From positions 1 through 41,949 of the IMG/VR virus record IMGVR_UViG_2558860473_000005: a DNA stretch of 41,949 nt; one strand, 5' to 3'. Below the pieces are notes generated by a model that was not told the DNA's origin, did no database searches, and saw nothing but the letters and a program-made list of their open reading frames with translations. Within the stretch, counting starts at the first letter, position 1, and each line of letters starts with the position of its first letter. This DNA is from a virus. Lineage: Duplodnaviria; Heunggongvirae; Uroviricota; Caudoviricetes. The translations under genes and the position numbers were made by a program. Below are positions 9,084-37,532 of this stretch, in pieces.

Positions 9084-9323
9084 GTTGTAAATGTTGCAGG
9101 TATCAAGTAAGTAATTAGATGGAGCGCCATAAATTATGAATTCATCGTTTGTCGGGTCCATCTCCATCTCTTGGCCTATTGCCATTCTTGCGTCAGTGTC
9201 GTCAGCGGCGAAGCATAAAACAGCCCACGCCCCCATTGTTTTAAAAAGAACTGCAATTGGCTGTGGTTTTACTGAATTTGCGTTAGCGCGAAAATCACAA
9301 ATCGCACTTTCATGAAACTCCAT
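9072..9323 (-). CDS. Hypothetical early protein, 83 aa
   Basis: ORF immediately downstream of N. Confidence 0.5.
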   Translation of the reverse strand: MEFHESAICDFRANANSVKPQPIAVLFKTMGAWAVLCFAADDTDARMAIGQEMEMDPTNDEFIIYGAPSNYLLDTCNIYNKAA

Positions 9324-9331
9324 ATCTCACC

Positions 9332-9658
9332 TCAAATAAGTGGTTTGCTGCCTAATTTCATTTTCTGGCGACCAACACAAGTCACACCCATTTCACTGCG
9401 TGGCTTGCTGTACCATGTGCGCTGATTCTTGCGCTCAATACGTTGCAGGTTGCTTTCAATCTGTTCGTGGTATTCAGCCAGCACCGTAAGGTCTATCGGA
9501 TTCAGTGCGCTTTCTACTCGTGATTTCGGTTTGCGATTCAGCGAGAGAATAGGGCGGTTAACTGGTTTTGCGCTTACCCCAACCAACAGGGGATTTGCTG
9601 CTTTCCATTGAGCCTGTTTCTCTGCGCGACGTTCGCGGCGGCGTGTTTGTGCATCCAT
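9332..9658 (-). CDS. N: Antitermination protein N (lambda-type), 108 aa
   Basis: Begins MDAQTRRRERRAEKQAQWKAANPLLVG (arginine-rich boxB-binding motif); essentially lambda N by recall; start set at the internal Met of the track ORF. Confidence 0.9.
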   Translation of the reverse strand: MDAQTRRRERRAEKQAQWKAANPLLVGVSAKPVNRPILSLNRKPKSRVESALNPIDLTVLAEYHEQIESNLQRIERKNQRTWYSKPRSEMGVTCVGRQKMKLGSKPLI

Positions 9659-9768
9659 CTGGATTCTCCTGTCAGTTAGCTTTGAGTAACGCGCCGTGAT
9701 GCTTATCTCCACGGTTGCTGTCTTGCAGCTGCATTTCGCGCTACTCAAAGCTTTCTGCTTTGAATGCT

Positions 9769-9799
9769 GCCCTTCTTCAGGGCTTAATTTTTAAGAGCG
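9769..9799 (-). promoter_or_regulatory. nutL (boxA CGCTCTTAA, boxB GCCCTGAAGAAGGGC)
   Basis: Reverse complement reads CGCTCTTAAAAATTAAGCCCTGAAGAAGGGC, the canonical lambda nutL. Confidence 0.85.
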
Positions 9800-9828
9800 T
9801 CACCTTCATGGTGGTTAGTGCGTCCTGC

Positions 9829-9870
9829 TGATGGCTAAATAGTACGATTTGTACTTTATCGAGTCAATAC
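9829..9870 (-). promoter_or_regulatory. Putative PL promoter with OL-type dyad AGTACgatttGTACT
   Basis: On the minus strand: -35 TTGACT, 17-bp spacer, -10 TACTAT, overlapping a perfect 15-bp palindrome that shares the GTAC half-site with the OR sites. Confidence 0.5.
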
Positions 9871-9930
9871 AAAATGTTCTAAATATAATTAGTTTTTTAT
9901 AACGCTTTGTATTTAATGGGTTTATATTTT

Positions 9931-9960
9931 GGAAAAAGAAAACCCGACGCTAAGGTCGGG
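9931..9960 (-). terminator. Rho-independent terminator downstream of cI
   Basis: Hairpin CCCGAC-gctaag-GTCGGG followed by a U-run on the minus strand, about 30 bp after the cI stop. Confidence 0.6.
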
Positions 9961-9992
9961 TTATTGTTGTGTGTTTTAGAGTGGTGAGGCTG

Positions 9993-10652
9993 TTAACTAA
10001 ATGTCTCTTCAGGCCACTGGCTGGCGATAACTTTCCCTACTACGGAACAGCTATCATTGCATGGAATCATTGGATATTGCGGGTTTAGTGGCTGTAGGAA
10101 CACCTGACCGCTATCCCTGATCAGTTTCTTGAAGGTAAACTCGTCACCACCAAGTCTGGCTATGCAGAAATCACCTGGCTCAACAGCCTGATCAGGGTCA
10201 ACGAGAATTAACATCCCGTCAGGAAAGCTTGGCTTGGATCCTGTTGGCGCGGTCATGGAATTACCTTCAACTTCAAGCCAAAACGCACAATCACTGGCTT
10301 TTTTGGTTGTGCTGACCCATCTCTCCGCATCACCTTTGGTAAAGGTTCTAAGCTCAGGCGAGAACATCCCGGCCTGAACATGAGAAAAAACAGGGTACTC
10401 ATATTGTTTTTTAACGGGGGCAGATGAGTATTCGCCAACAGGTGAAAATGTACCGTCGTGGTTGAATGAGACGTTATCAATACCAAGGTATTTAAACACC
10501 ACACCAATCTCGTCAAGAGATGGATGACGAGATCCGCGCAACCAGTGACCAATTCCACCCTGCGTCATACCAAGCTCTTCAGCTAACTTCTCTTGAGTTA
10601 TGCCGAGCTCTTTCATTCTGGATCTAGCCAGTTCATACCATTTCATTTTCAT
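9993..10652 (-). CDS. cI: CI-type prophage repressor (HTH N-terminal domain plus S24/LexA-like C-terminal domain), about 219 aa
   Basis: C-terminal half ([37 protein letters not shown]...) is near-identical to lambda CI by recall; N-terminal DNA-binding domain is different; start taken at MKMKWYEL (10652) or two codons later (10646). Confidence 0.85.
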
Positions 10653-10763
10653 ACCCCTATTATTACGCTCTGTACTAAAACCATCCATGCACAAGATGTA
10701 TTTTTTGTTTGCATTCTAAAAGTACATATCGTATTATTGTTTCATGGTTACTATGGAGGGCAT
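10653..10763 (+). promoter_or_regulatory. OR/PR/PRM region: two GTAC dyads (ATTACgctctGTACT 10662-10676; AGTACatatcGTATT 10721-10735) and putative PR (-35 TTGCAT 10709-10714, -10 TATTAT 10732-10737)
   Basis: Divergent cI-cro intergenic region; the dyads share half-sites with the OL dyad; PR has a 17-bp spacer and is overlapped by the second dyad. Confidence 0.5.
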
Positions 10764-10979
10764 ATGAGCAACCTACGAAAATATCGAGAGTCACTGAATA
10801 TCTCTCAAACAACACTTGCTAAGGCAGTTGGATGCACACAGGGAGCTATCGGACATTGGGAATCTGGTCGTCGCTTCCCAGACCTTAAAACATGCCGTGC
10901 TCTTGTTGAGTGCCTAAACAAGTTAGGCGCAAAAGTCAGTCTTGATGACGTGTTCCCGCCGGAACACAAAGCCGCTTAA
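10764..10979 (+). CDS. cro: Cro-like HTH (XRE-family) regulator, 71 aa
   Basis: GGAGGG RBS upstream of ATG; helix-turn-helix segment ISQTTLAKAVGCTQGAIGHWESG; divergent from cI; not lambda Cro. Confidence 0.8.
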   Translation: MSNLRKYRESLNISQTTLAKAVGCTQGAIGHWESGRRFPDLKTCRALVECLNKLGAKVSLDDVFPPEHKAA

Positions 10980-10988
10980 GACATTCCA

Positions 10989-11019
10989 GCTCTTACACAT
11001 CCCAGCCCTGAAAAAGGGC
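10989..11019 (+). promoter_or_regulatory. nutR (boxA GCTCTTACA, boxB GCCCTGAAAAAGGGC)
   Basis: Matches lambda nutR by recall; the tR1 region follows before cII. Confidence 0.8.
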
Positions 11020-11098
11020 ATCAAATTAAACCACACCTATGGTGTATGCATTTATTTGCATACATTCAATCAATTGTTATCTAAGGAAATACTTACAT

Positions 11099-11392
11099 AT
11101 GGTTCGTGCAAACAAACGCAACGAGGCTCTACGAATCGAGAGTGCGTTGCTTAACAAAATCGCAATGCTTGGAACTGAGAAGACAGCGGAAGCTGTGGGC
11201 GTTGATAAGTCGCAGATCAGCAGGTGGAAGAGGGACTGGATTCCAAAGTTCTCAATGCTGCTTGCTGTTCTTGAATGGGGTGTTGTCGACGACGACATGG
11301 CTCGATTGGCACGACAAGTTGCTTCGATTCTCACCAATAAAAAACGCCCGGCGGCAACCGAGCGTTCTGATCAAATACAAATGGAATTTTAA
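11099..11392 (+). CDS. cII: Transcriptional activator CII (lambda-type), 97 aa
   Basis: MVRANKRNEALRIESALLNKIAMLGTEKTAEAVGVDKSQISRWKRDWIPKF... near-identical to lambda CII by recall. Confidence 0.9.
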   Translation: MVRANKRNEALRIESALLNKIAMLGTEKTAEAVGVDKSQISRWKRDWIPKFSMLLAVLEWGVVDDDMARLARQVASILTNKKRPAATERSDQIQMEF

Positions 11393-19841: not shown

Positions 19842-20280
19842 TAGCGATAATTCTACTCATCATCCTTCACATCTGGCTCTGTAGACAGGGTGGTGATCAC
19901 TTCTGGAGTGAATCCAGATTAAACATCTCATTGCTGATGCTTGAAGTTAAGCATATGGCGCGCGGCAAGGGGCTGCGTTGAGATAAGAGCCAGTTCATTA
20001 CAAAGCCTATCTACGGGTGGGCTTGATAATGAAACCGGAATTTATTCTGGGTAACCAGTTACGGCAGTACAGCGAAACAACCCAAGCCAGAAAGTGGGGA
20101 AATAACACTGGCAGCCACTGAAAGATGAACCTCCAGCCTTATGGCAAAAAAGATTCTTTGTGGTGGCGGACTGATGGAAAGACATCGGATAGAATAAAAC
20201 AGTGGCTAGGGTAGCTGCCGAAAAGCGGAATCGTCACCGCCTGCCACTGAATCTATGACGAACAACTAGACGAGGTTGTG

Positions 20281-35676: not shown

Positions 35677-36079
35677 CTTTCACATGACTCACGGAAAAGT
35701 AGGCTTGCGCAGAATGCACTAGAGTGTTGTCTTTGCTGATGGATACTCGAATTAAGTAATCCCCGTCAGCATCAAGTTTGCATTTATCGAAATGCATAGA
35801 CATCGATGTTGCCAAGGTGTTCCTGATCTCATTGTGTCCTTTTGCCTTAATCCATACGCCTTTATCACCGCTTACACTGATTTCTAACTCATTCTCGATT
35901 CTATAGAGACAAGCTGAAACCCAATATGGTGTATCATGAATTAAACCGAGAAAGTGAACCTGAAAATCAAGGTCAGTAGTCACAGGTAACTCATCTGTCT
36001 CCATGATTAACATGGGTGATTTTTCATCATTTTCAGACTTATGGTAAGGAAAAAGGAATGCTATTTTTTCAGTGTTCAT
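35669..36079 (-). CDS. Hypothetical soluble protein, 136 aa; cassette gene A
   Basis: Start overlaps the mnt stop by 4 bp (translational coupling); no recognisable family. Confidence 0.55.
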   Translation of the reverse strand: MNTEKIAFLFPYHKSENDEKSPMLIMETDELPVTTDLDFQVHFLGLIHDTPYWVSACLYRIENELEISVSGDKGVWIKAKGHNEIRNTLATSMSMHFDKCKLDADGDYLIRVSISKDNTLVHSAQAYFSVSHVKDA

Positions 36080-36318
36080 TTCCCATCCCTTAAACGTTTA
36101 AGTACATTGATGGTTACATCAAGAGCCTCTTGCTCTGACTTTGCCAGTTGCTGACTGCTTAATGGTATAACCTGCTCTTTATGCATTTTTATCCACAACT
36201 GGATAGCAGCAATAATCTCAGCATTGATAGAGCGTCGATTAGTGGCAGCAATATGCGTAAGTTGCTGTTTTATCTCATCTGGCATTCTTACGTTGAATTG
36301 CGGATCATTTCTAGCCAC
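36076..36318 (-). CDS. mnt: Mnt-like ribbon-helix-helix repressor, 80 aa
   Basis: MARNDPQFNVRMPDEIKQQL... resembles P22 Mnt; divergent from arc; GTG start with GGAGA RBS. Confidence 0.75.
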   Translation of the reverse strand: MARNDPQFNVRMPDEIKQQLTHIAATNRRSINAEIIAAIQLWIKMHKEQVIPLSSQQLAKSEQEALDVTINVLKRLRDGK

Positions 36319-36411
36319 GTCATTCTCCTTTTATTTATTGACATGCTAGAACGGTAGTAGTACGCTTTCAATAGTAGTACGGTGCTATCATTTGATGAAA
36401 TGGAGGTGAAT
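36319..36411 (+). promoter_or_regulatory. immI-like divergent promoter/operator region (Pant-like -35 TTGACA 36338-36343; direct repeats TAGTAGTAC at about 36355 and 36373)
   Basis: Intergenic region between divergent mnt and arc; candidate -35/-10 elements on both strands overlapped by two 9-bp direct repeats. Confidence 0.45.
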
Positions 36412-36573
36412 ATGCAAGGTGCAAGAAAAATGCCGCAGTTCAATTTGCGGTGGCCTAAAGAAGTATTGGATTTGGTACGCAAGGTGGCGGAAGAGAATGG
36501 TCGGTCTGTTAATTCTGAGATTTATCAGCGAGTAATGGAAAGCTTTAAGAAGGAAGGGCGCATTGGTGCGTAA
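36412..36573 (+). CDS. arc: Arc repressor (ribbon-helix-helix), 53 aa
   Basis: [53 protein letters not shown] is near-identical to P22 Arc by recall; GGAGGTG RBS. Confidence 0.9.
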
Positions 36574-36577
36574 AGTT

Positions 36578-36609
36578 GAAGCCCCAACTGCTGGAACAGT
36601 CAGGGCTTC
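36578..36609 (+). promoter_or_regulatory. Extended hairpin in the arc-ant intercistronic region
   Basis: GAAGCCC...GGGCTTC with inner ACTG/CAGT stem; no U-run on either strand. Confidence 0.35.
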
Positions 36610-36641
36610 GGTATCAACAAAACTTACGAGGTATTATTGAT

Positions 36642-37532
36642 ATGTCAAGCTTAGCAAAGTCAACTGTAAATTGCACTAATAGCATCATCATTTCTGACGT
36701 CAAGATTCATATGGATTCAGAGGGGCGTTACTCGCTTAATGACCTTCATGTAGCGTCTGGGAAGGAGGAAAAACATCAGCCAGCTTTCTTCATGCGTAGA
36801 AATGAAACTATTGAATTAATTAATGAAATTTTTAATTCTGCGGATATGCAGAATAAGAATCCCGTCCTTTCTAAGAAAGGTCGATATGGTGGAACCTACG
36901 TGTGCAAGGAGCTTGTTTACTCCTACGCCATGTGGATTAGTGCATCCTTTGCGCTGAAGGTTATCCGTGCATATGACGCAATGGTTACTGCCACACAAGA
37001 TAGGAAGGCTATTGGAGGTAAAACTTCAGTAGCTGAACGCACACCGCTACGAGATGCAGTAAACATGCTGGTAGGAAAGAAAGGACTTCGCTATGACGAT
37101 GCATACAATATGGTTCATCAGCGTTTTGGTATTGACAGCATTGATGAACTTTCAATTGAACAAATCCCGCTGGCCGTAGAGTACATCCACAGGGTAGTGC
37201 TTGAAGGTGAGTTCATTGGCAAACAAGAGAAGAAAACCAACGAGCTTTCTGCAAAAGAAGCAAACAGCCTTGTATGGTTATGGGATTATGCCAACCGTTC
37301 ACAGGCATTATTCCGCGAACTGTATCCGGCGCTAAAACAAATTCAATCGAACTATTCCGGCAGATGCTACGACTACGGTCATGAGTTCTCGTATGTTATC
37401 GGAATGGCGAGAGACGTTTTAATAAACCACACACGAGATGTTGATATTAATGAGCCAGACGGACCAACGAATCTTTCCGCATGGATGAGACTTAAGAATA
37501 AAGAATTACCTCCTTCAGTACATAACTACTGA
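36642..37532 (+). CDS. ant: Antirepressor Ant (KilA-N domain N-terminus), 296 aa
   Basis: KilA-N-like segment ([24 protein letters not shown]...); downstream of arc as in P22 immI; GAGGT RBS. Confidence 0.8.

Follow-up and report, generated by a model that had tools for sequence, protein, structure and literature searches.

Among lambdoid phages, the repressor CI of the VT2-Sakai type, with 61% overall identity to its lambda counterpart, has been assigned to the same 'clade I' (PMC8951638), and no more specific account of mosaicism between lambdoid repressor domains was found in the literature. According to PMC10742460, Fattah et al. 2000 had found the VT2-Sakai and lambda repressors to be highly homologous in their C-terminal parts but little so in their N-terminal parts. 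The Shiga toxin 2a (Stx2a) prophage of the Sakai strain corresponds to a PA4-type phage, for which a left (OL) and a right operator region (OR) with sites OL1-3 and OR1-3 have been given (Yin et al. 2015, PMC4587872). The present analysis concerns the immunity region around positions 9829-10763 of IMG/VR record IMGVR_UViG_2558860473_000005, a tailed-phage sequence of 41,949 nucleotides that is called the window throughout. This region is an intact lambdoid immunity cassette (OL, terminator, cI, OR, cro) in a P22-like prophage. It is very probably a working immunity switch of the VT2-Sakai type, operating like that of lambda. Its specificity is not new and is that of the known and very common VT2-Sakai (Sp5) / Stx2 II / Stx1-converting / Nil2 / 2851 type.

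A megablast search of positions 9700-11100 against phage records matched 123 records. The region is 97.9-99.3% identical in five isolated phages (Dewey, vB_EcoP-720R6, vB_EcoP-683R2, Louie, and phi458), and the segment from cI through cro (9993-10979) shares 92.7% DNA identity with Nil2, the Stx1-converting phage, Stx2 II, 2851, and the PA-series Stx2a phages. The N-terminal DNA-binding part of CI (the head) is 96.4% identical in protein sequence to that of VT2-Sakai-type Stx phages, with identical recognition helices, and Cro differs from the Cro of the Stx1-converting phage and VT2-Sakai by one substitution (99% identity). Each operator lies one or two bases away from the 17-bp sites annotated in AP005153, a record of a Stx1-converting phage, and the changes are central or outermost except at position 3 of OL3. 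The VT2-Sakai operators of Table S1 in PMC10742460 equal the AP005153 annotation and are likewise one or two bases from the sites of the window. The segment of head, OR, and cro was present in 786 of 5,426 complete E. coli genomes, or about one in seven. Given the split homology published in 2000, the operators in the database, and these 786 genomes, the immunity type was already known.

An earlier reading of the same DNA, made from the letters alone and here called the original prediction, had proposed a distinct immunity specificity created by module exchange inside cI. A distinct specificity created here is contradicted, as the whole of cI including its C-terminal part (the tail), OR, and cro are shared with Stx phages at 92.7%. 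The original prediction had also named what would speak against it, namely an N-terminal domain that proves identical to a known immunity type whose operators differ. The head does belong to a known type, but the operators are the same ones rather than different.

In common with the VT2-Sakai type, the window has this head joined to a lambda-like tail, and six 17-bp operators, the rightward promoter (PR), and the repressor maintenance promoter (PRM) at the same places. The differences concern the flanks, which are annotated as HK97/HK022-like in the Stx phages whereas N/nutL and nutR/cII are lambda-type here, the distance between OL and OR, which is about 2.3 kb in the Stx phages and 0.88 kb here without cargo genes, and the carrier, which is here a P22-like non-Stx prophage with a P22-type immI. 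In the VT2-Sakai reference record NC_000902, a stop codon interrupts cI where the recognition helix begins, at its first residue (MT*GGIGHW; L005 2901-3596), for which reason RefSeq annotates cI there as two fragments. Only 2 bases separate this interrupted gene from the uninterrupted cI of the Stx1-converting phage.

The coding features of the repressor and Cro are as follows.

9993-10652, minus strand: cI, 219 amino acids, HTH_3 and Peptidase_S24 domains (Pfam).
9993..10403, minus strand: C-terminal part of cI, residues 84-219, hinge and S24 domain, lambda-like.
10404..10652, minus strand: N-terminal DNA-binding domain of cI, residues 1-83, VT2-Sakai type, recognition helix TQGGIGHW.
10764-10979, plus strand: cro, 71 amino acids, all-helical HTH_3 (Pfam), recognition helix TQGAIGHW.

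The HTH_3 domain of the CI head covers residues 11-58 (E 8.3e-11), and the tail matches Peptidase_S24 with E 1.8e-28. In the protein alignment, 132 of 136 residues from Tyr84 to the C-terminus are identical to lambda CI (97%), the four differences being S139C, E171D, E217D, and G236S in lambda mature numbering. On the DNA level, the tail is 93.3% identical to lambda over 9999-10403 by blastn and 92.7% in the allele comparison given below. Residues 1-83, on the other hand, reach about 14% identity with the lambda head in local alignment. A PDB search with CI returned the intact lambda repressor 3bdn (E 5e-96), 8gmu, and lambda C-terminal domain structures, while the matches of the CI head and Cro to the 434 and P22 C2 repressors were marginal (E 0.006-0.4). 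Ala94-Gly95, Ser132, and Lys175 align with A111-G112, S149, and K192 of lambda, and from this conserved cleavage site and its catalytic residues we infer RecA-stimulated self-cleavage and SOS induction. Fifteen positions of lambda CI with a role in cooperativity or induction are all unchanged.

Cro could be aligned with lambda Cro at 36% with many gaps and is not collinear with it. It shares 35% identity over 62 residues with the CI head of the same phage, and the recognition helices of the two proteins are nearly alike (TQGAIGHW in Cro, TQGGIGHW in CI), which fits CI and Cro competing for one set of sites. These alignments agree with the original prediction in that the C-terminal half of CI was called lambda-like and the head and Cro were not. 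Among structures, PDB 28tn ('lambda repressor-like protein', 82 amino acids) matches Cro residues 1-69 with E 2.4e-16, so a structural template exists for this Cro family.

The three putative 17-bp operators that AP005153 gives in each of OL and OR were mapped onto the window at the following positions.

9840-9856: OL1, TAGTACGATTTGTACTT, leave-one-out rank 1 and top matrix score in the window, one base from AP005153.
9865-9881: OL2, CAATACAAAATGTTCTA, leave-one-out rank 5, two bases from the AP005153 operator.
9898-9914: OL3, TATAACGCTTTGTATTT, leave-one-out rank 6, one base from the AP005153 operator.
10661-10677: OR3, TATTACGCTCTGTACTA, placed by AP005153 annotation, weight matrix, and relatives.
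10687-10703: OR2, ATGCACAAGATGTATTT, the weakest match (leave-one-out rank 25), annotated in AP005153.
10720-10736: OR1, AAGTACATATCGTATTA, second-best weight-matrix score in the window.

That GTAC-type dyads are the operators of this switch is supported by several lines of evidence. The original prediction had pointed to the dyads AGTACGATTTGTACT (9841-9855), ATTACGCTCTGTACT (10662-10676), and AGTACATATCGTATT (10721-10735), all of which are present in OL or OR, but it undercounted the set of six 17-bp sites by missing OL2, OL3, and OR2. The motif search across the prophage that it had called for returned three matches to AGTAC-N5-GTACT at one mismatch or fewer in 41.9 kb, all of them in OL or OR (0.46 expected; three reached in 2 of 100 shuffles). 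With up to two mismatches, 12 matches were found against 8.7 expected, which is not above chance, and this looser search is uninformative. The discriminating tests are the search at one mismatch or fewer and the leave-one-out matrix.

The common pattern of the operators is (T/A)A-n-TAC-N5-GTA-n-T(T/A); positions 5-6 are A-C and positions 12-13 are G-T in all six. A symmetric weight matrix built from them placed the six operators at the six best positions in the window, and the leave-one-out ranks of OL1, OL2, OL3, OR3, OR2, and OR1 were 1, 5, 6, 6, 25, and 2 of 41,933 positions, respectively. Relatives with a CI 64-85% identical and the helix TQGG(I/V)GHW (metagenomic contigs and a Citrobacter contig, L006-L010) were scanned with the same matrix, and their top matches lay at three positions in the cI-cro spacer and at two or three positions beside N. 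These sites retain the half-sites and the spacing but vary in the five central bases; the position of OR2 and its deviant half-site GTGCAT are kept in all relatives. In lambda and 933W, which served as controls, the weight-matrix scan found no such sites in OL or OR. The best lambda operator on this matrix was OR2 with 5.4 bits, compared to 12-20 bits for the sites of the window. The DNA-binding specificity is not that of lambda, as the original prediction had held.

Centre to centre, the operators are spaced by 33 bp (OR1-OR2), 26 bp (OR2-OR3), 25 bp (OL1-OL2), and 33 bp (OL2-OL3). This asymmetry is kept in the relatives with 33-34, 26, 25-26, and 33-34 bp, respectively, so that the tight pair is promoter-proximal at the leftward promoter (PL) and promoter-distal at PR. 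Three further 17-mers were noted outside these sites. Weak operator-like sequences occur downstream of N (AATCACAAATCGCACTT, 9293-9309) and at the end of cII (AAATACAAATGGAATTT, 11373-11389), and AAATACAATTGGTTATG, right of OL, is kept in lambda, 933W, and VT2-Sakai (L003 1260-1276, L004 1870-1886, and L005 1512-1528, respectively). All three are probably chance or unrelated conserved sequence.

The promoters stand as follows relative to these sites.

9839..9867, minus strand: PL, TTGACT - 17 bp - TACTAT, with OL1 over the spacer and -10 and OL2 overlapping the -35.
10709..10737, plus strand: PR, TTGCAT (10709) - 17 bp - TATTAT (10737), in the 111-bp spacer between cI and cro.
10659..10687, minus strand: proposed PRM, TGGATG - 17 bp - AATAAT, 6 nt before the cI ATG at 10652.

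OR1 overlaps the spacer and -10 hexamer of PR, and the -10 hexamer and the TTG of the -35 are conserved in the relatives. A good PR overlapping a dyad had been predicted, and TTGCAT-17-TATTAT indeed overlaps the third one. On the cI strand, the order is OR2, TGGATG, 17 bp, AATAAT, 6 nt, and ATG, with OR2 overlapping the weak -35 by one base and OR3 overlapping the -10 hexamer. Six relatives keep the PRM blocks GTGCATGGATG and GCGTAATAAT, and the distance from these to the first ATG, without change, and a putative PRM is annotated there in AP005153 as well. The PRM start is likely the A of the cI ATG at 10652, which would give a leaderless cI mRNA. This arrangement, the leaderless cI mRNA included, is that of lambda within 1-2 bp.

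Outside the block of head, operators, and cro, the cassette is bordered by sequence close to lambda.

9332..9658, minus strand: N antiterminator gene, Pfam N36 (E 1.5e-26), lambda-like.
9769..9799, minus strand: nutL, with boxB GCCCTGAAGAAGGGC (9769-9783) and boxA CGCTCTTA (9792-9799), read from the sequence, stem-loop detected.
9820..9833: mosaic joint on the left side, GCGTCCTGCTGATG, where the PL transcript begins, common to lambda, VT2-Sakai, and the window.
9941..9962, minus strand: intrinsic terminator 3' of cI, lambda t_imm-like, with 9935-9970 88.9% identical to lambda.
10986..11392, plus strand: nutR (boxA AGCTCTTA at 10988-10995, boxB at 11005-11019) and the right lambda-like flank.
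11100-11392, plus strand: cII, in the right lambda-like flank.

By blastn against lambda, DNA identity amounted to 93.9% for N (9357-9684), 97.7% for nutL and the PL leader (9746-9833), and 97.3% for nutR-cII (10986-11388), while no lambda match was obtained for OL (9834-9934) or for the cI head, OR, and cro (10404-10985). The joint within cI lies in the hinge at about codon 84 (window about 10403/10404), and the right joint lies just past the cro stop codon. Both the lambda-like flanks (N, nutL, nutR, and cII at 94-98%) and a module joint inside cI had been anticipated by the original prediction, and lambda homology does resume at about 10403. The lambda counterpart of the terminator segment 9935-9970 is the sequence directly downstream of rexB. 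Between cI and OL there is no rexAB-like or Stx-phage-type cargo, and the distance from OL to OR is therefore only about 0.88 kb.

With lambda, the locus shares the last 136 residues of CI (97%), a tripartite OL and OR of 17-bp sites, an arrangement of OR2, OR3, and PRM that agrees within 1-2 bp, a cI mRNA that is probably leaderless, a t_imm-like terminator, and lambda-like N, nut sites, and cII. It differs in its DNA-binding domain (about 14% identity), in a Cro of another fold type (here HTH_3 and like the CI head), in the half-site (TATCAC in lambda, TA-n-TAC here), in the OR1-OR2 distance (24 bp in lambda, 33 bp here), and in the absence of rexAB. It does not belong to imm-lambda, since the head is about 14% identical, Cro is not collinear with lambda Cro, and the sites read TA-n-TAC-N5-GTA-n-TA rather than the consensus TATCACCGCCGGTGATA.

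A 933W-type head was considered and rejected because CI and Cro are each 24% identical to those of 933W, and no 933W operator scores well on the motif. Both systems have a lambdoid CI with a helix-turn-helix head and S24 tail and symmetric operators, which in 933W have the half-site xG(A/T)AC (PMC3317979). 933W OR1, CGTAC-TGAAA-GTACG (L004 4832-4846), even has the GTAC-N5-GTAC core of the operators described here. 933W differs in having five operators and reportedly non-cooperative binding (PMC3317979). In its 15-bp operators, half-site position 6 is a pyrimidine, and purines there are bound much more poorly (Bullwinkle et al. 2012, PMC3317979). In the window this position is a purine in 12 of 12 half-sites and may be a discriminator between the two types. 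The head, Cro, and operator set are also not those of 434, 21, or P22, and the PDB matches to the 434 and P22 repressors were marginal. The imm434 and imm21 hybrids of lambda resemble this locus in that the immunity cassette was exchanged as a block from the PL-leader joint to the end of cro and in having a joint at the repressor linker.

The locus has the hallmarks of a lambdoid CI system, with cI and cro diverging around OR1-3 and with OL1-3 between N and cI. How the switch would work follows from the analogy with lambda and the 97% identical tail; this applies to binding, repression, activation, cooperativity, looping, cleavage, and homoimmunity alike. CI dimers would bind OL1-3 and OR1-3 through the recognition helix TQGGIGHW, blocking PL from OL1/OL2 and PR from OR1. 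At OR2, beside the weak -35 TGGATG, CI would probably activate PRM, whose transcription would begin at the cI AUG and yield a leaderless mRNA. At high CI levels, OR3, which overlaps the PRM -10, would be occupied and PRM shut off. The lambda-type tail would provide dimerisation, pairwise cooperativity, and probably looping between OL and OR over about 0.9 kb. RecA-stimulated self-cleavage at Ala94-Gly95 by Ser132/Lys175 would induce the prophage, and Cro, with its near-identical helix, would bind the same sites and set the lytic programme. By the same analogy, a lysogen should have immunity to VT2-Sakai-type phages but none to lambda, 434, 21, or 933W.

Several points weigh against a VT2-Sakai-type switch that works in this way. 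Experiments on binding, immunity, or transcription with this repressor were not found in the literature, and AP005153 too labels its operators only as 'putative'. A consensus promoter scan showed no enrichment in the region (3 found, 3.0 expected), and PL, PR, and PRM consequently rest on position and conservation. The operator spacing is unlike that of lambda, and OR2 sits 5 bp upstream of the PR -35 and not over it as in lambda. Finally, PMC10742460 cites a claim by Fattah et al. 2000 of cross-immunity between VT2-Sakai and lambda, which would be at odds with the expected lambda sensitivity of the lysogen, and reports that lambda CI shifts VT2-Sakai operators in electrophoretic mobility shift assays with an apparent dissociation constant of 3.7-6.4 µM. 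No data other than these two point away from the reading given here.

The last two of these points lead to alternative readings of the switch. If cooperativity coupled OR2 with OR3 and OL1 with OL2, or if binding were non-cooperative and OR1 alone repressed PR, the logic would not be that of lambda. Such a logic would suit the place of OR2 and the conservation of the spacing (33-34/26 bp in OR, 25-26/33-34 bp in OL) in relatives whose CI is 64-85% identical, and the 933W repressor provides a precedent for non-cooperative binding (PMC3317979). It is nevertheless considered unlikely, since the tail is 97% that of lambda with the checked cooperativity positions unchanged, and the OR2-PRM geometry within 1 bp of lambda's suggests the same activating role. 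Lambda CI also cooperates over altered spacings if these are roughly in helical phase. A spacing of 33 bp is about 0.9 turn beyond the 24 bp of lambda. Real cross-immunity with lambda, through residual site recognition or mixed oligomers via the shared tail, would account for the report of Fattah et al. and for the band shifts, and the operators of both types are 17 bp long and have A-C in positions 5-6 and G-T in 12-13. It is rated as very unlikely because the heads are unrelated (about 14% identity) and the lambda operators score poorly (5.4 bits at best against 12-20 bits). In addition, the shifts correspond to binding 10-30x weaker than that of lambda CI to lambda OR1/OL1, and the accessible part of PMC10742460 quotes no control with non-specific DNA. 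That the region might be a decaying, non-working remnant in a cryptic prophage is suggested by its place next to a host gene and by the cI stop codon in the VT2-Sakai reference record. This reading was rejected as hardly credible, as cI, cro, N, and cII are all intact with mostly synonymous substitutions, phages that were isolated as viable particles have this region at 99% identity, and the window has a full set of large morphogenesis-size reading frames. The cassette of the VT2-Sakai type is instead regarded as functional, because the region is 98-99% identical in viable phage isolates and the tail differences are almost all synonymous.

The age and extent of the exchange in cI were assessed from three tail alleles (window, lambda, and Stx1-converting phage) and from domain-by-domain identities among 120 cluster representatives. 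The tail alleles share 91.0-92.9% DNA identity pairwise and differ at 29-37 positions, of which 25-31 are in synonymous codons. A new specificity that arose here by a recent crossover in cI between a lambda-like and a heteroimmune phage could be read from the resumption of lambda homology inside cI at about 10403 between flanks that are 94-98% lambda-like, and from the occurrence of lambda-like tails on several head types. The tail of the window, however, is 92.7% identical to that of lambda and thus no nearer to it than the Stx-phage allele, which reaches 92.9%, the flanks are far closer to lambda (97-98%) than the tail is, and the tail is not more than 99% identical to that of a co-resident phage with lambda immunity. 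VT2-Sakai-type Stx phages, in which N and cII are not of the lambda kind, also have this full-length hybrid cI, and the type is found in 786 genomes and was described in 2000. Head and tail moreover diverge in step in many proteins (84/85% and 64/64%), and taken together a recent local crossover is extremely improbable. The hinge joint in cI is real, but from the sequence comparison it is old and not particular to this phage. Of the module exchange inside cI that the original prediction had proposed, the joint thus stands, while allele divergence and the Stx phages show the event to be neither recent nor local.

Lambda-like tails (at least 80% identity) were found on four kinds of heads, namely the lambda type, that of the window, a relative at about 52% (Salmonella, Enterobacter), and an unrelated type of 212-215 amino acids, and in P0028 the head type of the window is joined to a tail of only 58% identity. 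Hinge shuffling is therefore general in this repressor family, and the recombinant may be the lambda or the VT2-Sakai type. The specificity resides in the block of head, cro, and operators, and the exchange only changed the attached tail.

The remainder of the window provided further observations on the prophage. A second immunity region, P22-type immI, is present at 36076-37532, with a Mnt-like gene (36076-36318, minus strand), an Arc-like gene (36382-36573, plus strand), an open reading frame of antirepressor size (36576-37532, plus strand), and a sar antisense RNA (36574-36640, minus strand, Rfam 66 bits). An antirepressor may therefore also act on the lambda-tailed CI. On the left side (1-1248 and about 1250-2100), the first bases of the window lie within a host gene that related records annotate as sucrose transporter/permease, so that a junction of prophage and host is placed near the left end. 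No transfer RNA genes were found in the window. The Rfam scan found nothing inside the immunity region and an int-alpA small RNA in the late region (20199-20261, plus strand, 41 bits against a gathering score of 35.8).

As a discovery the locus carries little weight, since the hybrid repressor, its operators, and the immunity type are already in the literature and databases and are common in E. coli. With one joint at the start of PL, one in the repressor hinge, and one at the end of cro, it illustrates modular evolution in textbook form. Mixed CI dimers, cooperative complexes, or looping complexes between heteroimmune prophages through shared lambda-type tails are conceivable, because tails at least 80% identical (97% here) sit on at least four heads, although they are improbable, as is the related idea that the 33/26-bp spacing gives a non-lambda cooperativity. 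If such complexes formed, there could be cross-talk in repression or induction, for example among lambda-immunity, P22-like, and VT2-Sakai-type Stx2 prophages, which might explain why VT2-Sakai and lambda were, oddly, reported as cross-immune. The type of switch described here controls the Stx2a prophage of O157:H7 Sakai. Because the switch is the same, a harmless P22-like prophage such as this one should immunise its host against such Stx phages, and its repressor might add to the repression of a resident Stx prophage.

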